DNA from: Cloacibacterium rupense
Lineage (GTDB): Bacteria > Bacteroidota > Bacteroidia > Flavobacteriales > Weeksellaceae
Direction of reading: 5' to 3'
NCBI RefSeq assembly: GCF_014645495.1
Contig: NZ_BMLV01000001.1
Location: 291,996 to 355,995, forward strand
Length of the DNA: 64,000 nt
Shown here: positions 6,933-18,392 of the stretch, piece by piece
How the letters are laid out: each line of letters begins with the position of its first letter
How positions within the stretch are numbered: position 1 is the first letter of the stretch
Made by a program: the position numbers and the translations under genes
The notes under the pieces: model-generated
Told to the model about the DNA's origin: nothing
Seen by the model: only the letters and a program-made list of their open reading frames with translations
Database searches by the model: none

Positions 6933-6958
6933 TTGAATTTCAATTTTATAAAAATTTA

Positions 6959-6994
6959 GAACCTTGCTAATCATCTATTGGCAAGGTTTTTTTG
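6959..6994 (+). terminator. Rho-independent terminator after the BCKDH E1 gene
   Basis: The hairpin aaccttgctaatcatctattggcaaggtt is followed by a T7 run. Confidence 0.6.
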
Positions 6995-7068: not shown

Positions 7069-7593
7069 ATGAATCACGAACTTCTCATAAAACTTAAAAA
7101 CAAAGACCGATTGGCGCAAAGGCAAGTTTATGAGCAGTTTGCAGGAAGATTCTACGCAGTTTGCAAAAGATATTTAAAGAAAGACGAAGAAGCAGAAGAA
7201 GCATTAGCAGATACATTTTTTATCATTTTCACCAAAATAGACCAGTTACAAAACTTAGATGTTTTCGAGGCATGGGCAAAGAAAATAGCCGTTAATCAAT
7301 GTCTTCAAACGTTAAGAAAAAAAGAATCAATTTTAATATCAATAGACGAAGAAACCTTTGTAGAAAAGCATTTAGCAGACCAACATTCTGAATCTTCTTT
7401 TGAAAAAGATATTTTGGCATTACTTCATTTTTTACCAGAAGGTTGCCGCACGATATTTAATTTATTTGCTGTAGAAGGTTATCCTCACAGAGAAATTGCA
7501 GAGATGCTATCTATTACCGAAGGTACTTCTAAATCTCAAGTAAATTTTGCCAGAAAAAAACTACAAGAACTATTACAAACTCAAAATGTGTAA
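7069..7593 (+). CDS. ECF-type RNA polymerase sigma-70 factor (sigma-24 family)
   Basis: 174 aa. Region-2-like segment RQVYEQFAGRFYAVCKRYL...ADTFFIIFTKIDQ and region-4 HTH EGCRTIFNLFAVEGYPHREIAEMLSITEGTSKSQVNFARKKLQE. Confidence 0.85.
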   Translation: MNHELLIKLKNKDRLAQRQVYEQFAGRFYAVCKRYLKKDEEAEEALADTFFIIFTKIDQLQNLDVFEAWAKKIAVNQCLQTLRKKESILISIDEETFVEKHLADQHSESSFEKDILALLHFLPEGCRTIFNLFAVEGYPHREIAEMLSITEGTSKSQVNFARKKLQELLQTQNV

Positions 7594-7608: not shown

Positions 7609-8595
7609 ATGGAAAATTTTAATGAAAATATAGACCAACTTTTCAGCGATGAAAGTAAAAAAGCAGAAGAAAATGCTACTTTTCCTTCTTTCGAAAAGGT
7701 ATGGGAAAAGGTTGAAAATCGTTTAGACGAAGTTGAAAACACAACAAAAAAACGCTTCATTCCTATTTGGTTGCCTTATTCTATTGCCGCATCATTAGTT
7801 TTTACTTTCGGAATAATGTACTTTTTTAATCAAAAAGAAACAATTTCAAATCATTCAAAAATTGCTTCTAATGAAACTTATAAAGTGATTAACAATCAGG
7901 GTTTTAATAATAATTTAGATAGCGCTAATATTGCAAAACTAGACCAATCTATTAAGCAAAATATTGAAAAATCTCAATTAAATGAAACTTCAAATAATAA
8001 TCTAGTAAAAAAGAAAGTAAGTTCACCACAAGTTTTAGCAGCTACCAAGATTTCTAATCAAGATAGTGAATCTTCTAATATCAATACTGAAGTTGATAAG
8101 AGCATTGAAATTTCAAATAATAACGACAATCAATTTATTCTAGCAAAAGCAGCGCCTTCGCCAGTAGTTGAAAATACAGCTTCTTTAGAATCAGAAAGAA
8201 TTATCGAAACTAAAAAATATAAGTCTGCAGAAGTTGCTAAAATGTCTCTTAATAATCAAAAAACGTCTGAACTGCTTACTTCTACAGCAGAACAGTCAAG
8301 TTTTTCAGAGTACGCAGTAAATAATGATGATGATTTTAAAATCAGTAGAAAACACGCCTCAGAACCGCTCTATATTGTTGATGGTTACGTAGCGGACACT
8401 AATTTTCTTAAGAATTACAACAAGAAAAAAATTACCTCTCTCAACATTGTAGAAGGTGATAATGCCAAAAAACTCTACGGAAATCTAGCCAAAAAAGGAG
8501 TAGTGGTTATTACTACAAAAGGTCTAAATTCTCAGGAAGAGGAATACCTCAAAAAAAATTCTAAAAATTATAATTTGTCTGGAACTAGCAATTAA
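7609..8595 (+). CDS. Membrane-anchored protein in the anti-sigma position, with a C-terminal SusC/RagA plug-like segment
   Basis: 328 aa, starting 16 nt after the ECF sigma gene. It has a ~50-aa cytoplasmic N-terminus with no Zn-finger anti-sigma motif, then one TM helix (FIPIWLPYSIAASLVFTFGIMYFF). A long S/N/E-rich low-complexity linker follows. The C-terminus reads PLYIVDGYVADTNFLKNYNKKKITSLNIVEGDNAKKLYGNLAKKGVVVITTKG. This matches the conserved PLYVVDGV...ISVLKDA.A.AIYGSRAANGVI.ITTKKG stretch at the start of the plug of SusC/RagA-type TonB-dependent transporters. Confidence 0.55.
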   Translation: MENFNENIDQLFSDESKKAEENATFPSFEKVWEKVENRLDEVENTTKKRFIPIWLPYSIAASLVFTFGIMYFFNQKETISNHSKIASNETYKVINNQGFNNNLDSANIAKLDQSIKQNIEKSQLNETSNNNLVKKKVSSPQVLAATKISNQDSESSNINTEVDKSIEISNNNDNQFILAKAAPSPVVENTASLESERIIETKKYKSAEVAKMSLNNQKTSELLTSTAEQSSFSEYAVNNDDDFKISRKHASEPLYIVDGYVADTNFLKNYNKKKITSLNIVEGDNAKKLYGNLAKKGVVVITTKGLNSQEEEYLKKNSKNYNLSGTSN

Positions 8596-8631: not shown

Positions 8632-11424
8632 ATGAAGAATTTCTATATCTTACTCTTTGTGCATCTTTTTTTGAACGGTTTTTCGCAGAACGAACAACGA
8701 TATTATGCGGGAAATTTCTACAACAAAAAAGACAAACCAGAAAATAATCTGAAGGTAACCAACAAAAATTCAGGGAATTATGAATTTTCAGATCAATACG
8801 GTTTTGTAATTATTCCTGCAAAAGTAGGCGATACTTTGGTTTGGAACAAAAAAAATTTCAGAGTAATACAAAACTATGAATTACAAGAAATTACCAGTAT
8901 TCTAGCTTCAAGAAAGCAAATGAACTCTACTACCGAACAAATAAATGTTTCTTATTTAGAAAAAATAAAAGTTGATTTTAAGAAAAATACAGACAATTCA
9001 GATTATCTGTTTTCCTCAAAAAAAGGAAAAAAACTAAATAATGGAAATTTGAGTAGTTTTTCTAACTATAAAACCGTTAAAGAGGAAGATAGCGTTTTTA
9101 TTTTTAAGAAAAAGAAGTCTTCAAATATCAAATTGAATGGCTCTTTTCAAAGTTGGGTAGAAATCGGTTCTGCTAATGCTTTACCAATAACTCAAAACCA
9201 ATTTGTACAAGGTAGAAATTCTAATGGTAATCTAATTTGGAGAGGTGCAGAAACTGATGAAATGTTCAGTTTCGGACCAGATATTTCTACCTTGAGTTTT
9301 GATGGAAATCCTTATGAATACGATATAAACGGAAAATTAGTTCTGTTGCAAAATGGACTGAAATCTGCCAAAGTTTATAAAAACAGAATCTTACAAAATT
9401 CTATTAAAACTTCTAATCAATTTACTTTGAATACAGCAATTACTGTTGCAGATTTACATTTATTTACCACAAAATTAGATTTGGGAAACACCAAAGAAAA
9501 TTCACTTTTTAGAGATAATTTTACCAATAATAATCATTTGAATGTGAATGTTTTTAGAAATTTTGATGACATCAAAGTAACTTTTGGTTATAAATTAAAT
9601 CAGGAAAAAGCGACTAACAGCAACAGAATAGGTTATTTTAATAGATTATTTCAAAATGCTTTACTTACGCCTATTTCATTTTCTAATGAACAGGGAAATT
9701 TATTAGGAAACAAACAACGCAGTTACAATAGTTTTGCAGATAATCCATATTATTTACTTCAACAAAATAATAAGTATAACTATATTGATAATCAGAATAA
9801 TATATCTTTAAATATAGAAAAAATTAAAGGAAATTTGAAATTTTTTATCAATCAAGCGTATGAAAAAATTTCTACTAAAAATATAGATTTTTACAATCCT
9901 TTTACTGTTGGTTTTTACAGCGGTTTAAATTCTGAAAGACTGCAAAATTTTGAAAATTATAACCTCAATTTCGGCGCTAATTACAGTTTTGGAAATTATA
10001 ATGCTCGTTCTTCTTTTTTCTTTAATAGCTTGATTAATAGTGCTAAAAACGAAATTAATTATCTTCAATTCAATCAAAATAATCAATACAACAGAATTGC
10101 ACAAGATTATATTTTGAAATACAATTTCGATTTTAGAGATAATCAATTTAAATTTAATATAGATGCCGCTAATTCTTTTTATATTTCAAATACTTCAAAA
10201 TCAGAATCTTATTGGTTGCCAAAATTGAATTTTTCAGTAAATTTAGATGATGTTTTTGATAATTATTCATATCATAATTTCAAAATTTTTGGAGCTTATA
10301 ATGAATCTGTAAACGAAATCAGCATTAATAAATCTTTTGCAAATTTTGCGACAACGCAGATTTTGCCTTCTCAAATTTCAAGTTATTTTCCATTAAAAGA
10401 AGTGGTGAGTTTTAAGAATTTAGAACCCATAAAAACCATAGAAAAGAAAGTAGGATTGCAATATAATTTACTGCGAAATAGAATTAATTTAGAAGCAGTT
10501 TATTTCCAAAAAACCTTTACTGATGATGTTTTTCCAACTTTTGAAAACGGAAATCTAATTTTGAAAAATATCGCCAATCATCAAAACAAAGGTTTTGAAT
10601 TAAACCTTCAACTCAATAATTTTTCTTTTGGAGATTCTTCTGAATTTAGAGACAATCACAAGATTACGTTCACCAAATACAGTTCAGAAGTTACCCAAGT
10701 TAATTCACAAAATCTATTCGTTCCGATTGCTGGTTTTAGCAACGTTTACAGAAGTTTGACAAAAGGTGAAGCTTTAGGTGTAATTGTTGGAACTGCTTAC
10801 AAAAGAGACAATTACGGAAATTTTGTGATAGGAAATGACGGTTTTCCGTTGGTTTCTCCAGATTTGAAAGTGATAGGAAATCCAATTCCAGATTTTGTCC
10901 TCAAATTTTCTCACGAATTTAAGTTGTATTATTTCAGTTTAAACATCGATTGGGAATGGAGAAAAGGTGGCGATGTTTGGAACGGAACCGCTGCAAACCT
11001 CGATTATTTCGGGCGTTCTCAAAATTCTGCCGAACAAAGAAACATCGCCAATTACACATTTTCTGGAGTTTTACAAAACGGAAATCCCAATTCTATTTTG
11101 GTAGATTTTTACAACGTAAATCAAAATTTTGAAAACAATCTTTGGTACAGATACGGTTACACTGGAGTTGCCGAAAATTACATTTCAAAAGCCACACAAA
11201 TTCGCTTAAATAACATTTTGCTTTCTTATACAATCAAGCGTAATATTTTGCCATTCAATGAGTTGAAACTTTCCGCTTCGGTTAATAATTTCATACTTTG
11301 GAGCAAATACAAAGGAGTAGATTCCACGCAAAATTTCTACAATTCTAGTGATGTGCAAGGTTTAGATTTCTACAATTTGCCTTCTGTGAAATCGTTTGCT
11401 TTCCAAATTGCTGTTAAATTTTAA
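8632..11424 (+). CDS. SusC/RagA-like outer-membrane beta-barrel protein with an N-terminal carboxypeptidase-regulatory-like domain but no TonB box or plug
   Basis: 930 aa. Signal peptide MKNFYILLFVHLFLNGFSQ, followed by a CarboxypepD_reg-like beta-sandwich (GNYEFSDQYGFVIIPAKVGDTLVW). Barrel-like features include NHQNKGFELNLQL and a C-terminal aromatic residue (…KSFAFQIAVKF). I could find neither a (D/E)xVVVxGYG TonB box nor the IRIRG/PLYVVDG/ITTKKG plug signature. Confidence 0.6.
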   Translation: MKNFYILLFVHLFLNGFSQNEQRYYAGNFYNKKDKPENNLKVTNKNSGNYEFSDQYGFVIIPAKVGDTLVWNKKNFRVIQNYELQEITSILASRKQMNSTTEQINVSYLEKIKVDFKKNTDNSDYLFSSKKGKKLNNGNLSSFSNYKTVKEEDSVFIFKKKKSSNIKLNGSFQSWVEIGSANALPITQNQFVQGRNSNGNLIWRGAETDEMFSFGPDISTLSFDGNPYEYDINGKLVLLQNGLKSAKVYKNRILQNSIKTSNQFTLNTAITVADLHLFTTKLDLGNTKENSLFRDNFTNNNHLNVNVFRNFDDIKVTFGYKLNQEKATNSNRIGYFNRLFQNALLTPISFSNEQGNLLGNKQRSYNSFADNPYYLLQQNNKYNYIDNQNNISLNIEKIKGNLKFFINQAYEKISTKNIDFYNPFTVGFYSGLNSERLQNFENYNLNFGANYSFGNYNARSSFFFNSLINSAKNEINYLQFNQNNQYNRIAQDYILKYNFDFRDNQFKFNIDAANSFYISNTSKSESYWLPKLNFSVNLDDVFDNYSYHNFKIFGAYNESVNEISINKSFANFATTQILPSQISSYFPLKEVVSFKNLEPIKTIEKKVGLQYNLLRNRINLEAVYFQKTFTDDVFPTFENGNLILKNIANHQNKGFELNLQLNNFSFGDSSEFRDNHKITFTKYSSEVTQVNSQNLFVPIAGFSNVYRSLTKGEALGVIVGTAYKRDNYGNFVIGNDGFPLVSPDLKVIGNPIPDFVLKFSHEFKLYYFSLNIDWEWRKGGDVWNGTAANLDYFGRSQNSAEQRNIANYTFSGVLQNGNPNSILVDFYNVNQNFENNLWYRYGYTGVAENYISKATQIRLNNILLSYTIKRNILPFNELKLSASVNNFILWSKYKGVDSTQNFYNSSDVQGLDFYNLPSVKSFAFQIAVKF

Positions 11425-11437
11425 AAACTATCTGAAA

Positions 11438-14400
11438 ATGAAAACTTTACAATATATTTTTCTTTTCCTTTTTGCATTCCAATGTTCATTTGCACAAAAA
11501 TCTTACAAAAATTATTATTCTGAATACGAAAGTATTCCTAATTATCTGAAATCTAATGAAGAAGCAGAACTTTTTTATCAATTATTTGCCAAAAAAGTAA
11601 AATCTGATTACAAAAAAGAAAAGGTTTATGCACAAACCAACCACGTTTTTTTCAAACCGGGAGAAGAACTTTTTTACAAAATTTTGGTGGTAAATGCAGA
11701 AAATAATTCGCCAAGTTTTTTGAGTAAAATAGTAACCGTAGAAATGATAGATCCTTCTGGAACGGTAGTAAATAAAAGAAAATTGCAAGTTCTGAATGGT
11801 TATGCGAAAGGAAATTTCTATTTTCCTGCAGATGTAAAAGGAGGAATTTATAAACTGCGAGTTTATACCAATTATATGCAAAACGAAATCGGGAAAAATT
11901 ATTTCGAAAAAGAACTGACGGTACAAAAAACATCTTCGCCAAGAATTTTAATGAAATTAGACTTCCCAAAAAAAGGATTAAGTGCTGGACAAGAAGTTTT
12001 GGCAGATTTTTCCCTTAAAAATTTGAATAATGAGGTAATTCCTTTTTATCAGTTTTCTTATGAAGTTTACATCGCAGGAAAAGAAGTTTTAAAAAACGAA
12101 GTTTCTACCAATAAAGAAGGTAAAATTCAATTGAAATTTAATTTGCCAAAAGATTTAGAAACCACTGATGTTTTACTCAATATTCGTGTAAATTACGATG
12201 GTTTCAAAGAGTCTATTTCTAGAAATGTACCTGTAACTTTGAATAAAGTAGATTTGTTTTTCTTCCCAGAAAGTGGGAGTTTAGCGAATGATATTTCAAC
12301 CAAAATCGCCTTCAAAGCTTTAAATGAATTTGGACAACCGGTAGATATAAAAGGAGAAATTTTAGACGAAAATCAACAAAAAATTTCAGAATTTGAAGCT
12401 TATAAATTCGGAATGGGAAAATTTAATTTTACTCCTAAAAATGGTAAAAAATATTTCGTAAAAATTCTTCAACCCAATATTTCAAAATTATACGAATTGC
12501 CTTCTGCAAAGGATAATACCGTGGTTTTGAATACTGAAAAATTCAATGGGAAAATTATTTTAAAAATTCAATCTAATGAAATTCAAAATTTAAAATTAAT
12601 CGGAAATTTTAGAAATAAAGAAGTTTTTAGCAAAGAATTTTCTTTACGCCAAAAAGAAGAAATCCAACTTGATGAAAAAAAATTTTCTTCCGGAATTTGC
12701 AGATTTACAGTATATAATACTGAAAATATACCACTTTGTGAACGAGTGATTTACCTTAATAAATCTCGTGAAATGCAAGTGAAAATCACACCGAATAAAA
12801 ATACTTTTATCCCAAGAGAAAAAGTAGAACTCAATATAGAAACGCTTGACGAAAACGGAAAACCAATTGCTGCAAATCTCGGTTTGAGTGTGATAGATGA
12901 CAAACTTTGGACGTATGCTGATGATAAACAAAACACCATATTTTCTTGGCTTCAAATGGATTCTGAAATTGCAGGAAAAATAGAAGAACCTTCATTTTAT
13001 TTCAAAAAAGACGAACCAAAAGCAGACGAAGCTTTGGATTTGGTAATGCTTACCAATGCGTACCGATATTTTGAATTATTGCCGGAAATTAAGGAAAATA
13101 AATTAATGAAATTTGAGTATGAAAAATCGAATTCTGTCTATGGAAAAGTAATTGATGAAAACGGTAAAGATATAGATGCAGAAGTGTTTTTGATGGATTA
13201 TAGTGCCGAACCAAAAGTTTTGAAACAAAGCACAAAAAAAGCGAGATTTTATTTCACCAATTTTCCTTCGGGTAGAGATTATCAATTGATTTCAAAACCT
13301 AAAAATAAGAAGCAAAAAATTTCAATTAAAGTTTTGGCATTTCATCTCGATGGAGAAATTATGGTTACTGAAAGCGAGCTAAAATCTTCACAAAAAGAAG
13401 GAAAAGAATTTGAAAAAATTGAAGAAAATTTTAAAGAAAGAGCTTTAGAAAAAATTCAAAATAAAACAGAAAATCAAGTTCAAGTTGAAAGCAAAAGATA
13501 TTACAGCGGTAAATCTGATTCAACTAAAATTAAAAACATTGAACAAGTAGTAGTGGTAGGTTATGGAATGGCGAAAAAAGAAGCATTAACAAGTTCTGTA
13601 GTTTCGGTTTCAAGAAATGAAATCAATGCCAATATTGTTCAATCGCTTTCTGGAAGAGTGGCAGGTTTAGAAATTACCCAAAATTCAGGAATTCCCGGAA
13701 GTGCTGCCAATATTAGAATTAGAGGAGCTGCTTCTCTCAACGGAAATCAACCGCTTTTTGTGATTGATGGCGTGATTGTAGATAAAATTGATACCAATAT
13801 CAATACCAATGATATTAAAAACATCAGCGTTCTAAAAGATGCGGCTGCAACTTCAATTTATGGAAGCAGAGCTGCAAATGGTGTAATCATTATCAATACC
13901 AACGATGGAATGCCTTACAATGCTAAACACATTAATTTTTCTAAAGATCATTTTGCGTATTTTAATATTTCTTCGGGTTATCTTAAAAATAGTGATAGTT
14001 ACGAGAGAGTTTTCACGTATCCAGTTTACCAAGATACCAAAACGCTTTTTAGAGATGATTTCAGAGAAACTATTTATTGGAATCCTGTCATTCAAACCGA
14101 TGAAAACGGAAAAGCAAAAGTAGAATTTTATAATTCTGATGCCAATACAACTTTCCGAATGATTACAGAAGGTGCTTCTTACAACGGTTTATTAGGAAGA
14201 GCAGAAAAAACGTATGCTGTGAAAAGTAATTTGCAAATAGATGCTAAAATTCCGCAATATATTACGATGGCAGATCAACCAGAAATTCCTTTGGTGATAA
14301 AAAATAACACGGATAAAATTAAAAGAATTAACCTTAATTATTTCTTGCCAAAAAATATAGGATTGTTGAAAAAAGACAGTTTGGTAATTCTTAACCCTAT

Positions 14401-16057
14401 GGAAAACAGAAGATTGCTTTTGCCTTTATTGGCTAATAGAAGTACTAATTCTAGTCTTCAAATTTCTGCAATTACAGATGATGAAAGAGAAACACAAGTG
14501 CTTCCGCTAAAAGTAGAACCGAAAGGTTTCCGTCATTTTATAGATTTTTCGGTAAATAAAGATACGGTTTATCAGTTCAATGTTTTGGATAGAACCATTG
14601 ATGATAATACGTTTTACCGATTGAGAATTTTTAGAAATACCGCTAATAGAATTTTGAATGATTTAGACAGATTGTTAGACGAACCTCACGGTTGTTTTGA
14701 GCAGACTTCTTCTACCACTTATCCTAATTATTTTGTTTTGCAATATTTAAAATCTAAAGGAAAGGTAGATGAAAAATTAGAACAAAAAGCGCTCAAAAAT
14801 TTGAAACACGGTTACAACAGATTGGTGAATTTTGAAACATCGGAAAATGGTTTTAGTCTTTTTGGTAGTAAACCAGCCAATGTAAGTCTCACTGCATTTG
14901 GTTTGATGGAATTTAATGATTTGAAAAATGTATTGAATGTAGATGAAAAAATGCTGGAAAGAACCAAAAAATTTGTTCTATCAAAGAGAAATCCAAATGG
15001 AACCTTCAACCTTTCTAATTATGAATCTTATTATGATAAAAAATCTGAATATTATTGGGCAAAACAAGCGTATATTTTGTATGCACTTTCTTCAATTGGT
15101 TTGAAGGATGAAATTTCTAAACAATATGAAGTAATTCTTAACCATAATAAAGCAACTGGCGATGCTTATCAAATGGCACTTTTGGCAAATGTAGCTTTTG
15201 ATTTAGGCAAAAAACAAGATTACAAAGTTTTGTCAGAAAAACTGTACCGAAAATTTTCTGATAATAAATTAAAATCGGAAGTCAATTTTATGGAAGGAAG
15301 TGGCAAATCTCTTTCTGCGGAAGTTTTGGCTTTGTATGCTATTTCTCTTTTGAAAAGCGACGAAGAGCAATTGAATTTAACCAAAGTAATCGATGCTTTA
15401 GAACTTTCTGATGGTTATTATTCTACTCAATCTAAAGTTTTGGTTTTGAAAGCTTTGTCAGAATATTATTCAAAATTTAATGTAAATTCTTCTAATGCTG
15501 AACCTACAGTAAAACTGAATGGAGAATTATTAAAAGAAGAACAATTGATAACCAATGATTTATTGAAAAAAGGACAAAACCAACTCGAAATTTCCTATCC
15601 AAAAGGAAAAGGTTTGCCTTTGAATTTTTATGCCAGTTATTTCTCGCTTCAACCACCAAAAGATGAAAATTCTACAATTTTTATGGAGGTTAATTTGTCT
15701 CAAAAAGAAGCAAAAATAGGTGATAATGTAAGAATGAATATTAAAATTGAGAACAAAGAAAACCGATATCTTGGAATGATTACTGCAAAAATTGGGATTC
15801 CTGCTGGTTTAACCATTCAACCAAAATTATTGAAGGATATGATTGAGAAAAAGCAAATTGCGTATTATGAAATTTTTGATAATTATTTGGTTTTGTATTG
15901 GTATAAATTAGAAGAAAAAGCAAGTATCAATCTCAATTTAGATTTAAAAGCAGAATTTTCTGGAAGATATATTGGGAAAGCCAACAAAGTTTATGAATAC
16001 TATAAACCCGAAAATTATCATTGGAAAGATGGAGTAGAGGTAAAAATTAATGACTAA
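11438..16057 (+). CDS. Alpha-2-macroglobulin-family protein (MG domains plus thioester domain) with an internal TonB box and SusC/RagA plug-signature insert
   Basis: Start moved to MKTLQYIFLFLFAFQCSFAQ (signal peptide). MG2-like N-terminus (KPGEELFYKILVV...GGIYKLRVYT) and an A2M-type LSVIDDKLW motif. The thioester region reads LLDEPHGCFEQTSSTTYPNYFVLQYL…FETSENGFSLFGSKPANVSLTAFGLMEF, alignable by eye to human A2M LLQMPYGCGEQNM…YKHYDGSYSTFG…WLTAFVLKTF. At nt 13541..13910 sits the insert EQVVVVGYGMAKKEALTSSVVSVSRNEINANIVQSLSGRVAGLEITQNSGIPGSAANIRIRGAASLNGNQPLFVIDGVIVDKIDTNINTNDIKNISVLKDAAATSIYGSRAANGVIIINTNDG. It comprises a TonB box plus the SusC/RagA signature. Confidence 0.7.
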   Translation: MKTLQYIFLFLFAFQCSFAQKSYKNYYSEYESIPNYLKSNEEAELFYQLFAKKVKSDYKKEKVYAQTNHVFFKPGEELFYKILVVNAENNSPSFLSKIVTVEMIDPSGTVVNKRKLQVLNGYAKGNFYFPADVKGGIYKLRVYTNYMQNEIGKNYFEKELTVQKTSSPRILMKLDFPKKGLSAGQEVLADFSLKNLNNEVIPFYQFSYEVYIAGKEVLKNEVSTNKEGKIQLKFNLPKDLETTDVLLNIRVNYDGFKESISRNVPVTLNKVDLFFFPESGSLANDISTKIAFKALNEFGQPVDIKGEILDENQQKISEFEAYKFGMGKFNFTPKNGKKYFVKILQPNISKLYELPSAKDNTVVLNTEKFNGKIILKIQSNEIQNLKLIGNFRNKEVFSKEFSLRQKEEIQLDEKKFSSGICRFTVYNTENIPLCERVIYLNKSREMQVKITPNKNTFIPREKVELNIETLDENGKPIAANLGLSVIDDKLWTYADDKQNTIFSWLQMDSEIAGKIEEPSFYFKKDEPKADEALDLVMLTNAYRYFELLPEIKENKLMKFEYEKSNSVYGKVIDENGKDIDAEVFLMDYSAEPKVLKQSTKKARFYFTNFPSGRDYQLISKPKNKKQKISIKVLAFHLDGEIMVTESELKSSQKEGKEFEKIEENFKERALEKIQNKTENQVQVESKRYYSGKSDSTKIKNIEQVVVVGYGMAKKEALTSSVVSVSRNEINANIVQSLSGRVAGLEITQNSGIPGSAANIRIRGAASLNGNQPLFVIDGVIVDKIDTNINTNDIKNISVLKDAAATSIYGSRAANGVIIINTNDGMPYNAKHINFSKDHFAYFNISSGYLKNSDSYERVFTYPVYQDTKTLFRDDFRETIYWNPVIQTDENGKAKVEFYNSDANTTFRMITEGASYNGLLGRAEKTYAVKSNLQIDAKIPQYITMADQPEIPLVIKNNTDKIKRINLNYFLPKNIGLLKKDSLVILNPMENRRLLLPLLANRSTNSSLQISAITDDERETQVLPLKVEPKGFRHFIDFSVNKDTVYQFNVLDRTIDDNTFYRLRIFRNTANRILNDLDRLLDEPHGCFEQTSSTTYPNYFVLQYLKSKGKVDEKLEQKALKNLKHGYNRLVNFETSENGFSLFGSKPANVSLTAFGLMEFNDLKNVLNVDEKMLERTKKFVLSKRNPNGTFNLSNYESYYDKKSEYYWAKQAYILYALSSIGLKDEISKQYEVILNHNKATGDAYQMALLANVAFDLGKKQDYKVLSEKLYRKFSDNKLKSEVNFMEGSGKSLSAEVLALYAISLLKSDEEQLNLTKVIDALELSDGYYSTQSKVLVLKALSEYYSKFNVNSSNAEPTVKLNGELLKEEQLITNDLLKKGQNQLEISYPKGKGLPLNFYASYFSLQPPKDENSTIFMEVNLSQKEAKIGDNVRMNIKIENKENRYLGMITAKIGIPAGLTIQPKLLKDMIEKKQIAYYEIFDNYLVLYWYKLEEKASINLNLDLKAEFSGRYIGKANKVYEYYKPENYHWKDGVEVKIND

Positions 16058-16062
16058 AAAAG

Positions 16063-16092
16063 TAGACTGACAGAAATGTCAGTTTATTTTTT
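16063..16092 (+). terminator. Terminator after the A2M-family gene
   Basis: The hairpin actgacagaaatgtcagt is followed by ttatttttttaatttatttt. Confidence 0.5.
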
Positions 16093-16165
16093 TAATTTAT
16101 TTTCAAAAATTATTGAAAGTTCAGGAATTTTATTTATCTTTGTCAAAGAAAATCAATCATTAATT

Positions 16166-16669
16166 ATGAAACTAGAAGAAGCCAAAGAAAAATACATTCA
16201 AACTTGGGGCACATTTGCCACCAATTGGGGAATTAATAGAACAATGGCACAAGTTCACGCTTTGCTTTTAGCTTCGGATAAACCACTTTCTACAGACGAA
16301 GTGATGGACGCATTACAAATTTCTAGGGGAAATGCTAATATGAATTTGCGTGATTTAATGAACTGGGGAATTGTAAGAAAAGAATTGGTAAAAGGAGAGA
16401 GGAAGGAATATTTCGTTGCAGATAAAGATGTTTGGTATCTTTTTAAACAAATTACCAAAGAACGCAGGAAAAGAGAAATAGAACCAGTTGTTTCGTTTTT
16501 AGAAGAACTTAAAAATATAGAAGACAATGATTCTAATGAAGCCAAGGAATTCATCAAATTAATGGAAGATTTCTCATCAGTTACTCAAAAAATCAACAAT
16601 ATTATGGATTTGGCGATAAAAAGTGATGATCATTGGTTAGTTGGGAAGATAACAAATTTGTTAAAATAA
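16166..16669 (+). CDS. GbsR/MarR-type winged-helix transcriptional regulator
   Basis: The start was moved to MKLEEAKEKYIQTWGTFATNWGINRTMAQVHALLLASDKPLSTDEVMDALQISRGNANMNLRDLMNWGIVRKELVKGERKEYF. The pattern matches small HTH regulators annotated as GbsR family in Flavobacteriia. Confidence 0.65.
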   Translation: MKLEEAKEKYIQTWGTFATNWGINRTMAQVHALLLASDKPLSTDEVMDALQISRGNANMNLRDLMNWGIVRKELVKGERKEYFVADKDVWYLFKQITKERRKREIEPVVSFLEELKNIEDNDSNEAKEFIKLMEDFSSVTQKINNIMDLAIKSDDHWLVGKITNLLK

Positions 16670-16671
16670 AA

Positions 16672-16740
16672 ACTTTGTCAAAGATTCCTTTGCTTCGCAA
16701 AAACTTTGACAAAGTATAAAAAGGAAGAATCCTTTTTTTA
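16672..16740. promoter_or_regulatory. Perfect 12-bp inverted repeat followed by a short hairpin/T-run, between the GbsR-type regulator gene and the DCC-family gene
   Basis: actttgtcaaag at 16672..16683 pairs with ctttgacaaagt at 16704..16715, separated by a 20-nt spacer. aaaaaggaagaatccttttttt then follows at 16718..16740. Confidence 0.4.
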
Positions 16741-16864
16741 TTTAAAATTAATTTTCAAAAATTACTGAAAATATTATAATTATGAAAAATATAATCATCT
16801 ATTTGTTTCTAATGCTTTACTTCGGGAGAAGTAAGAGAAGTGCGTTTAATCTTTAAAATTTATA

Positions 16865-17683
16865 ATGATGAAAACTCTTAAAAATCACACCCTTATTTAC
16901 GATAAAGATTGCCCAATGTGCGCTGTTTATTCATCGGCTTTTATCGGTTCAGGAATGTTAGACAAAAACGGAAGAGAAGCATTTTGCGAAATTTCTTTGG
17001 AAGACAAAAATCTTTTAGATTATAATAAAGCGAGAAATGAGATTGCTCTCATCAATCATCAAGAAAACAAGGTGATTTATGGTTTAGACAGTTTATTGCT
17101 CATTATCGGAAATTCTTTTCCATTGTTGGTGAAAATTGCAAAAATACAGCCATTGTATTGGTTTTTTCAGAAGCTTTATAAGTTGGTCTCATTTAATAGA
17201 AAACAGATTATTCCTTCTGTAAAAGATACTGAAAAAGATGCTTGTGTTCCTGATTTTAATCTAAAATACAGACTTCTTTACATTGGCTTTGTTGCTGTTC
17301 TTTCAGCCTTTGTTTTAAGTGAATTTTCTCCGAAATTATGGCAAAATCTTACCCCTAATTTTTATAGAGAATTAAGTGTTTGTTTGGCTCAGATTTTTTG
17401 GCAAACACTATTTTTGAAATCTTTTTTAAAAGATAATTTTTGGAATTATTTGGGAAATATGATGACGGTTTCTCTTCTGGGAACTTTATTGCTTATTCCT
17501 GCTTTGTTTCTCAATTTCAATGCGTTATTTTTTGGAGTTTACTTTTTTGCAGTAGTTTCAGTAATGTTTTTTGAGCATTTCAGGAGATGCAAAATCTTAA
17601 AATTAGGATTTCTGCCTACTTTCTCTTGGTTGATTTTCAGACTGACTTTAGCTTTACTAATTTTCGCAATATATTCAAAATAA
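16865..17683 (+). CDS. DCC-family thiol-disulfide oxidoreductase (DUF393-like) fused to a C-terminal polytopic membrane region
   Basis: N-terminus LIYDKDCPMCAVYSSAFIGSGMLD…IYGLDSLLLIIGNSFPLLVKIAKIQPLYWFFQKLYKLVSFNR (DCC motif CPxC). The C-terminal half is strongly hydrophobic. Confidence 0.6.
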   Translation: MMKTLKNHTLIYDKDCPMCAVYSSAFIGSGMLDKNGREAFCEISLEDKNLLDYNKARNEIALINHQENKVIYGLDSLLLIIGNSFPLLVKIAKIQPLYWFFQKLYKLVSFNRKQIIPSVKDTEKDACVPDFNLKYRLLYIGFVAVLSAFVLSEFSPKLWQNLTPNFYRELSVCLAQIFWQTLFLKSFLKDNFWNYLGNMMTVSLLGTLLLIPALFLNFNALFFGVYFFAVVSVMFFEHFRRCKILKLGFLPTFSWLIFRLTLALLIFAIYSK

Positions 17684-17690
17684 ACTAATT

Positions 17691-18392
17691 ATGAATTTCC
17701 TCACCGCAGAATGGCGAAAATTAGCCATTATCAATTACGAAGTAAATCCAGAAATTTTAGAAAAATACCTTCCAAACGGAGTAGAACTAGATTTTTGGGA
17801 CGGAAAATGTTTAATAAGTGTTGTGGGCTTTATGTTTTTAAATACTCAACTTTTGGGCATTTCTGTTCCTTTTCATCGTAATTTCGAAGAACTAAATCTT
17901 CGATTTTATGTCAAAAAATGGGAAAACCAACAATGGAAAAGAGGCGTAGTTTTTATCAAAGAAATTGTTCCTAAAAAAGCACTTTCATTCATTGCCAATA
18001 CTTTTTACAAAGAACATTACGAAACATTGCCAATGAAACATCTAATTTCGGAAAATACAGAAGAAATAACTGTAGAATATTTTTGGGGTGAAAATTTGAA
18101 TAATATCATTCAATTAGTTGCAAAAAATAATCAGCAAAAAATGCTTCAAAATTCTGATTTTGAATTTATTACAGAACATTATTTCGGGTACACCAAAAAT
18201 GGAGAAAAAACTTTTGAATATGAAGTAACGCATCCAAAATGGAAAAATTATGAAGTTTTAAATTCTTTTATTCAAATTGATTTTAAAGAAAATTATGGTG
18301 CTGACTTTGAATTTTTGCAAAACCAAAAACCACATTCTATTTTATTGGCAGAAGGTTCTGAAATTGAGGTGAAAACAAAGAAAATCATATAA
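17691..18392 (+). CDS. DUF2071 (YqjF-like) family protein
   Basis: 233 aa. The N-terminus MNFLTAEWRKLAIINYEVNPEILEKYLPNGVELDFWDGKCLISVVGFMF fits the DUF2071 pattern. It sits adjacent to a DCC gene, a commonly seen pairing. Confidence 0.55.
   Translation: MNFLTAEWRKLAIINYEVNPEILEKYLPNGVELDFWDGKCLISVVGFMFLNTQLLGISVPFHRNFEELNLRFYVKKWENQQWKRGVVFIKEIVPKKALSFIANTFYKEHYETLPMKHLISENTEEITVEYFWGENLNNIIQLVAKNNQQKMLQNSDFEFITEHYFGYTKNGEKTFEYEVTHPKWKNYEVLNSFIQIDFKENYGADFEFLQNQKPHSILLAEGSEIEVKTKKII

Follow-up and report, generated by a model that had tools for sequence, protein, structure and literature searches.

The locus examined here raises the question of why a protein of the alpha-2-macroglobulin (A2M) family should carry, in its interior, the TonB box and plug of a SusC/RagA-type outer-membrane transporter. 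The window, a stretch of 64,000 nucleotides (nt) from a Cloacibacterium rupense contig (NZ_BMLV01000001.1), contains such a gene at 11438..16057, and an original prediction made from the letters alone proposed that its product is physically coupled to a TonB-dependent outer-membrane component. Few machines of the Gram-negative envelope and of innate immunity have been studied as well as TonB-dependent transporters and A2Ms, and each of the two has been viewed as self-contained. The answer favored here, to which we assign a probability of roughly 0.6, is that the locus encodes a TonB-dependent transporter split in nature: a periplasmic thioester protein would provide, in trans, the plug for a plugless barrel encoded directly upstream. 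Targeted literature searches found no publication on this architecture or gene pair, and a search for natural splits between plug and barrel gave general papers on TonB-dependent transporters only. The belief that the arrangement is undescribed therefore holds for the literature searched, although the individual domains are already machine-annotated in databases.

The embedded module is well-defined by profile searches, with E-values that chance does not account for. Pfam Plug (PF07715) matches residues (aa) 714-816 with an E-value of 7e-13 and 49.4 bits against a cut-off of 23.9, and the SusC/RagA signature TIGR04057 matches aa 792-821 (nt 13811-13900) with 58 bits against a cut-off of 46.2. 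In a PDB sequence search, aa 700-859 align to residues 105-266 of the levan SusC BT1763 (5t3r_D, E 4e-27), with the plug being ~50% identical. Beyond the plug lies INFSKDHFAYFNIS, left over from barrel strand 1, whose counterpart in BT1763 is INFDASVSASMYQS (residues ~235-266), and no barrel is found within the A2M polypeptide. The protein covers only model positions 76-219 of TIGR04056, the TonB box and plug, scoring 164 bits against a cut-off of 368. The plug lies directly N-terminal of PF00207 in Pfam order, and an AlphaFold model of aa 340-1539 (98-sequence alignment, mean predicted local distance difference test, pLDDT, of 78) gives the order LNK-like segment, beta-sandwich, linker, plug, linker, MG7. 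These data uphold the earlier placement of a TonB box and SusC/RagA plug at the position of the bait region. The position of the beta-sandwich matches PF13620/PF13715 in homologues, with no Pfam match there in the window protein, and since the beta-sandwich of relatives matches CarboxypepD_reg, the insert looks like a whole SusC N-terminal module at the bait/anaphylatoxin (ANA) position of A2M and C3. The prediction had also asked whether the insert is plug-like or a bait-like loop, and the model holds both: a mixed alpha/beta plug fold (aa 720-824, pLDDT 50-75) and, before the TonB box, a disordered linker. The pLDDT is <50 over aa 639-719, TonB box included, and neither the sequence nor the length of the linker at aa 639-700 is conserved across the family. 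This modelled disorder, ~80 residues long and at the bait position, may serve as a bait.

A barrel with the complementary parts is encoded immediately upstream, with a gap of 13 nt from its stop codon to the A2M start. The protein consists of a signal peptide, a beta-sandwich (aa ~22-80), a low-complexity linker and a barrel from ~aa 164, and it was modelled with a mean pLDDT of 86.9. It has no TonB box and no plug, and a Pfam search of it gave no match. Foldseek returned SusC BT2264 (5fq6) as the top match, with an E-value of 4.5e-37 and a template-modelling (TM) score of 0.65, along with BT1763 and RagA. In TIGR04056 it covers model positions 278-981 only, with 87 bits against the cut-off of 368; thus, neither protein alone is a SusC, as both fall far under this cut-off. 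Against BT2264, the alignment of the barrel-family profile starts at chain residue 161, where the VVMITTKSG signature ends, and continues to the chain end, and a Plug match is found in 0 of ~100 barrel homologues. Because the insert spans the TonB box to the strand-1 remnant while barrel homology starts after the plug signature, the barrel and the A2M insert are complementary SusC halves, split at the plug/barrel boundary. A profile-profile comparison of the barrel family with canonical SusC aligned the C-terminal third only and is uninformative on the N-terminal boundary. Distant barrel homologues match CarboxypepD_reg at the position of the N-terminal beta-sandwich. The same region of the window protein (aa 1-140, 8632-9051) gives a weak match to the NCBIfam BamP family (E 2.9e-6, 26.9 bits against a cut-off of 230), which probably reflects a shared beta-sandwich N-terminal domain. 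The best-conserved part of the barrel family is a mostly non-regular segment after the first barrel strand (aa 184-256, 9181-9399; PITQNQFVQGRN...FSFGPDISTLSFDG) with invariant residues Q188, G194, G199, S213 and G215; it is recognisable in BT2264 too and is a candidate plug contact surface.

Evidence that the two genes belong together also comes from their co-occurrence. Stop-to-stop open reading frames (ORFs) of the retrieved loci were scanned with hidden Markov models (HMMs) of the plug, the barrel and each half of the A2M. Of 80 genome loci, those with a complete plug-bearing A2M gene and at least 3 kb of upstream DNA were taken as informative. In all 72 of these the barrel adjoins the plug-bearing A2M gene, mostly with a gap of 4 nt or an overlap, and no barrel there contains a plug. 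The lone plug-less A2M gene with enough room (L078) has no barrel adjacent. In the reciprocal test, metagenomes were searched with the barrel family, and true members were defined by an HMM score of at least 400. All 23 such members are plugless, and an A2M gene follows each of the 20 that have downstream DNA, whereas ~50 canonical SusC genes in the same scan, with their own plug and a weak barrel score, have no A2M neighbor. The pair is also retained in inverted gene order in a metagenome-assembled genome from the Cytophagia, and without sigma and anti-sigma genes in Chitinophaga and Aquimarina. The coupling to a TonB-dependent outer-membrane component that had been suggested thus finds support in a plugless barrel that is adjacent in every informative locus.

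A small group of variants separates the scaffold from the plug. In P0450, P0464 and P0479, the plug at this insertion point is replaced by CarboxypepD_reg domains together with a TonB box and a TonB C-terminal domain (TonB_C), and no barrel is adjacent at their loci, which indicates that the barrel goes with the plug and not with the A2M scaffold. These variants (L005:10001-14908, L006:3018-7925 and L007:384-5201) have two CarboxypepD_reg domains each, a TonB box such as LEEVVVIGFG, and PF03544 matches with E-values of 6e-13 to 7e-18. With a TonB box and a TonB_C domain side by side in the same insert, these proteins may bind to themselves or dock on other transporters. A further variation is seen in a metagenome locus (L101:4729-7536), where the barrel/A2M pair has a 936-aa ORF directly upstream. 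This ORF scores 342 bits with the HMM of the N-terminal MG half and 43 bits with that of the C-terminal half, of which it covers only the first ~60 positions. The features of the locus are collected in the table.

Table. Features of the split-transporter locus and its surroundings (positions in the window; aa, residues of the encoded protein).
Feature	Positions	Strand	Basis
ECF-type sigma-70 factor	7069..7593	+	174 aa; Pfam Sigma70_r2, Sigma70_r4_2; TIGR02937 77.6 bits vs 42.9
Putative anti-sigma factor, single-pass membrane protein	7609..8595	+	328 aa; role inferred from position only
Plugless SusC/RagA-like outer-membrane barrel	8632..11424	+	930 aa; NCBIfam, AlphaFold, Foldseek, PDB profile search
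A2M-family thioester protein with embedded TonB box and plug	11438..16057	+	1539 aa; ATG at 11438, stop at 16057; Pfam, NCBIfam, motifs
Sec-type signal peptide, MKTLQYIFLFLFAFQCSFA/Q	11438..11494	+	Cleavage site inferred
MG2	11621..11905 (aa 62-156)	+	PF01835, 38.7 bits vs cut-off 32.8
Helical LNK-like segment after LSVIDD	12902..13129 (aa 489-564)	+	AlphaFold secondary structure, model residues 150-225
Beta-sandwich like the CarboxypepD_reg-type N-terminal extension of SusC	13133..13342 (aa 566-635)	+	AlphaFold: six strands, pLDDT ~80
Disordered charged linker, candidate bait-like, protease-accessible segment	13352..13537 (aa 639-700)	+	Directly before TonB box
TonB box IEQVVVVGYG	13538..13567 (aa 701-710)	+	Aligns with TonB box DEVVVTGY of BT1763
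SusC/RagA-type plug	13577..13909 (aa 714-824)	+	PF07715, TIGR04057, BT1763 alignment
Second flexible linker with SusC barrel-strand-1 remnant	13910..14068 (aa 825-877)	+	Low pLDDT
A2M domain (MG7 region)	14069..14332 (aa 878-965)	+	PF00207, 37.6 bits vs cut-off 21
Thioester domain (TED)	14648..15466 (aa 1071-1343)	+	PF07678, E 9e-25
Thioester motif G-C-F-E-Q	14690..14704 (aa 1085-1089)	+	Motif coordinates
C-terminal MG8/receptor-binding-type domain	15773..16018 (aa 1446-1527)	+	A2M_recep 24.1 bits vs cut-off 21.7
Terminator-like hairpin after upstream E1 dehydrogenase gene	6958..6990	+	14-bp stem and T run
Terminator-like hairpin overlapping A2M stop codon	16055..16094	+	18-bp stem and T run

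Around the insert, the protein is an A2M. The MG2, A2M, TED and A2M_recep matches all lie above their Pfam cut-offs, while a bMG10 match at the C-terminus (22.5 bits) is under its own; the family identity first read by eye is thereby supported, and the profile searches bear out both the thioester domain and the plug. MG2 is part of an N-terminal array of macroglobulin (MG) domains at aa ~20-488, with the LSVIDD motif at aa 483-488. By its predicted MG array, CxEQ-containing TED and C-terminal MG8 domain, the protein belongs to the A2M/thioester superfamily. The MG7, CUB, TED and MG8 domains are modelled confidently, as is the C-terminal stretch of aa ~1350-1539, and the TED appears as an all-helical toroid of high pLDDT. 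Foldseek of the model gave A2ML1 with an E-value of 6e-40, and CD109, A2M, TEP1, SaA2M and ECAM with 1e-38 to 7e-36. TM scores are 0.41-0.44 to native A2ML1, CD109, A2M, TEP1 and ECAM and 0.20-0.25 to activated forms, the predicted A2M body being in a native-like, non-activated conformation. In the PDB sequence search, the C-terminal half matches CD109, TEP1, A2M, A2ML1 and C3. The thioester motif lies at exactly the coordinates first given for it; the idea that CFEQ is a deviant site does not stand, as GCFEQ is kept in every family representative containing a TED, as well as in the four distant loci examined, and is the family norm.

The N-terminus of the protein gives hints of its location. 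The signal-peptide Cys is replaced by F in close homologues and no lipobox is found in 223 of 237 family members; since this Cys is not conserved and the signal is of the signal peptidase I type (SFA/Q), a lipoprotein anchor was ruled out. Export via a type IX secretion system (T9SS) was likewise ruled out, as there is no match to a T9SS C-terminal domain. The A2M protein is thus most simply placed in the periplasm, where its predicted thioester site may trap or capture proteases.

The architecture is widespread in the Bacteroidota. More than 120 full-length proteins, mostly from Chryseobacterium, were found by protein search to share the Pfam architecture, and a query with a Cytophagia member added 120 more from Cytophagales, Chitinophagales, Bacteroidales and Flavobacteriales. 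An exhaustive plug/A2M junction query against 1.84 billion cluster representatives gave 95 clusters at E <=1e-30, ~75 of which (clusters at 50% identity) span both the plug and the A2M, and a scan of one genome per species placed relatives in at least 583 species. The nearest relative among the matches listed is from Flavobacteriales bacterium UBA1937 (93%). The plug is kept in 236 of 240 family members, the TonB box has the family consensus [IL][ES]EVVVxGY, and the plug motifs IRG, PLxVxDG and YGSRAxNGV are conserved; from this pattern, the coupling parts are judged to be under purifying selection. Existing machine annotations read "TonB-dependent receptor plug domain-containing protein", "MG2 domain-containing protein" or "alpha-2-macroglobulin-like protein". 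As the family is common and its domains are already annotated, the window holds one ordinary member of a large family. The original prediction had allowed that the insert might turn out to be common and annotated, and for the domains this is the case (at least 583 species, ~75 clusters), but the gene pair is not recognised in annotation. The interpretation given with the prediction is, as a whole, partly supported, and the partner barrel, the sigma/anti-sigma pair and the beta-sandwich of the insert go beyond it.

Individual family members deviate from the common plan. P0294 (1741 aa) and P0297 (1951 aa) have an extra ~130-190 aa N-terminally and a clear CarboxypepD_reg before the plug, and the insert of P0297 has two plug stretches. 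In P0437 (1535 aa) the TonB box is lost and a degenerate plug remnant (YYMDGKRL...HIITKGK) is left. P0437 and the plug-bearing P0399 may be paralogues from a single genome, as their longest contigs are of equal length (47,611 bp). A number of small to medium-sized proteins of 346-877 aa (P0296, P0302, P0305, P0307, P0325, P0341 and P0372) carry the plug-signature segment, at query aa ~108-189, in tandem, with 3-5 matches per protein (2-5 by another count of such proteins). The plug sub-module of SusC is therefore also a repeated unit outside transporters.

Taken together, these observations suggest how the pair may work. The upstream gene would encode a 22-strand barrel of the SusC type whose own TonB box and plug have been lost, and the downstream gene a Sec-exported, non-lipidated periplasmic A2M-type protein with a SusC N-terminal module at the bait position. 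In every solved TonB-dependent transporter, the two ends of the plug are on the periplasmic side. Because the plug ends have this orientation and two flexible linkers flank the plug, its entry into the partner barrel is possible: carried on two disordered linkers (~80 and ~50 residues), it may insert in trans from the periplasm and close the barrel. A ~170-kDa thioester protein would then be tethered directly under an outer-membrane channel, with TonB engaging the exposed TonB box, so that the pair would be TonB-dependent and the A2M would act as both gate and trap. A pull by TonB on the plug, or a protease cut in the exposed linker, would cause the incoming or attacking agent to meet a thioester cage at the periplasmic mouth. 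Such a protective or capture role is less certain than the trans-plug architecture itself.

Compared with the SusC/RagA transporters BT1763, BT2264 and RagA, the A2M holds the TonB box, plug and signature, and the neighbor is a SusC-like barrel with a beta-sandwich extension. The difference is that plug and barrel are here on two polypeptides, with the barrel lacking a TonB box, and that the plug is an internal insert between 700-aa halves of another protein. No SusD-family lid gene was found among the operon proteins or in related loci, where the A2M gene follows the barrel. The bacterial A2Ms ECAM/YfhM of E. coli and SaA2M of Salmonella share the multi-MG scaffold, the CxEQ TED and the C-terminal MG domain, and the fold of their native forms is matched with a TM score of ~0.41. 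Bacterial A2Ms use CLEQ, hence the motif CxEQ. ECAM has an inner-membrane lipid anchor and a linkage to pbpC (PBP1c). Here, however, there is no N-terminal lipobox and no adjacent pbpC, transglycosylase or transpeptidase gene, the bait position holds a transporter plug, and the proposed tether is to the outer membrane via the barrel rather than to the inner membrane via a lipid. In sequence, the TED is nearer to CD109, TEP1 and A2M, with no ECAM or SaA2M match at E <=1e-3. The eukaryotic proteins A2M, A2ML1, CD109, TEP1 and C3 provide the best TED sequence and fold matches, and the insertion site corresponds to their bait/ANA position, but they have GCGEQ in place of GCFEQ and their bait is here replaced or extended by a SusC N-terminal module. 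A split transporter has a laboratory counterpart in FhuA: when cork and barrel were made as separate chains, the cork reportedly entered the barrel in vivo and function was restored, a result that is absent from the Braun 2024 review. That split was engineered, whereas the present one is natural and conserved and its plug is embedded in a large unrelated protein.

The two genes preceding the barrel bear on its interpretation. The first encodes an extracytoplasmic function (ECF) sigma factor, which is found in the same position in Chryseobacterium glaciei (L001). The second encodes an anti-sigma-like protein whose N-terminus is short and which has a single hydrophobic helix (aa 51-69); its aa 248-321 (nt 8350-8571) match the second half of a SusC plug, signature included (family plug HMM positions 72-147, E 6e-18; TIGR04057 weak, 15.5 bits). 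Its orthologues in 33 Chryseobacterium-type loci have a full Pfam Plug match. Thus, there are two plug-bearing proteins per barrel in the Chryseobacterium-type lineage. In most Chryseobacterium genomes the gene has a full plug with a TonB-box region, compared with the half plug of the window, and in some it is extended by VWA and a T9SS C-terminal sorting domain or by vWF_A, VWA and YfbK_C (such plug-bearing genes lie at L009:2178-4622, L010:3545-4666, L019:2418-4685 and L029:1894-4632). An ECF sigma factor and a plug-bearing membrane protein before the pair suggest that it is induced by envelope signals in the lineage of the window.

Several points weigh against a split transporter. The AlphaFold models are of single chains, and the plug reaches a pLDDT of only 50-75, although values in this range are plausible for a plug modelled without its barrel. 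Gene adjacency has many possible causes, shared regulation among them. Plug-like modules also occur in the anti-sigma-like protein, in VWA/T9SS proteins and in small tandem-repeat proteins, and the module may therefore serve a role other than plugging. In addition, plugless, lidless SusC-like "Type S" transporters of Bacteroides are reported to work as open channels, and an engineered plug deletion to stay functional (preprint 10.1101/2025.11.13.688124), so a plugless barrel is not necessarily awaiting a plug. It is conceivable, then, that the barrel is an autonomous hollow channel of this kind and that the plug of the A2M stays outside it, as a TonB-binding, envelope-anchoring or interaction module of a periplasmic protease trap that has no more than the operon in common with the channel. 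The working plugless transporters, natural and engineered, the plug modules outside barrels (2-5 tandem repeats in the small proteins) and the TonB_C variants, in which the insertion site accommodates other modules of the TonB system, all speak for this. The likeness to "Type S" proteins lies in SusC-related barrels naturally without a plug or SusD lid; those, however, are described as hollow channels of smaller size that take up small sugars on their own, whereas the present barrel is of full size (930 aa) and always found with a plug-bearing partner. Against an autonomous barrel also stand the reciprocal exclusive co-occurrence (72/72 and 20/20 against 0 of ~50 canonical SusC genes), the split exactly at the plug/barrel boundary and the absence of a barrel beside plug-less A2M variants, and an unplugged, lidless 22-strand barrel would presumably form a very wide pore. 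This explanation is considered unlikely.

Other roles for the plug are more doubtful still. A signaling device, in which protease attack on the A2M linker or thioester moves the plug and acts through the anti-sigma-like protein to release the ECF sigma factor, would agree with the presence of both genes directly before the barrel in the window and in the 33 Chryseobacterium-type loci, and classical TonB-dependent transducers signal to anti-sigma factors (PMC11637429). Against it, 40 of 73 loci lack the third plug gene, and the sigma and anti-sigma genes are absent in Chitinophaga, Aquimarina, Cytophagia and most others. Because these genes are lineage-restricted, signaling is not the core function and would be a lineage add-on at best, one compatible with a split transporter; as an explanation of the pair it is improbable. 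Less probable again is TonB-powered export or display, by which the plug would target the A2M to the barrel and the A2M would be threaded to the surface to trap external proteases. A2Ms elsewhere do act on extracellular proteases, and the present one has no other recognisable surface-export signal. A precedent is the TonB-dependent transporter Oar, which is needed for secretion of the PopC protease (PMC6434023). However, the termini of a plug are periplasmic and so the flanking 700-aa halves are expected to be periplasmic too, a multi-domain protein of 170 kDa, folded and with its thioester buried, is too big for a 22-strand barrel, and the AlphaFold model is that of a compact, native-like A2M. 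Finally, an artefact or pseudogene, whether a broken SusC gene, a mis-assembly or a chimeric gene call, has just the unusual architecture in its favor and was rejected on the conservation data: an uninterrupted ORF of this architecture recurs in Flavobacteriales, Chitinophagales, Cytophagales and Bacteroidales, in at least 583 species altogether, and at an overall identity of 30-50% the catalytic and coupling motifs are retained, which leaves this explanation with next to no probability.

If the transporter is indeed split, plug and barrel would be separate, exchangeable parts in nature, and bacterial A2Ms would gain a defined site of action at the mouth of an outer-membrane channel. The pair would also provide a tractable model for the passage of TonB force through a plug into another protein. 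Hundreds of Bacteroidota species have the pair, culturable Chryseobacterium and Chitinophaga among them, so this is directly testable. Annotation would need correction as well, as the names "TonB-dependent receptor" and "hypothetical protein" miss the pair. A more far-reaching version of the split transporter, which can be entertained only tentatively, is that TonB force applied at the bait position would open the channel and at the same time trigger the conformational change of the A2M, leading to covalent capture of whatever enters through the barrel. The conformational change of A2M is reportedly set off by retraction of the cleaved bait from a central channel (PMC9352918); in the force-triggered version, the pull by TonB would replace or complement proteolysis, and the captured entrant could be a bacteriocin, a protein nutrient or a protease on its way in. 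On this view, the TonB_C variants would connect thioester proteins with the TonB system by a second route.

The surroundings of the pair add some minor observations. The two terminator-like hairpins are suggestive of the likely 5' and 3' limits of a four-gene unit, with only their positions being suggestive, since terminator-like sites in the region are not above chance in number. A promoter scan gave no excess of sites over shuffled sequence, PADLOC gave no defense-system match among the four operon proteins, and Rfam gave no RNA family within the window. Downstream of the A2M gene (16076-18392) lie genes for a TrmB/MarR-like regulator, a DCC1-like thiol-disulfide oxidoreductase and a DUF2071 protein, which occur in the same order downstream of the pair in C. 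glaciei, in keeping with a Chryseobacterium-related (Weeksellaceae-type) origin of the window; in C. glaciei, an extra VWA/YfbK_C protein is encoded directly after the A2M gene.

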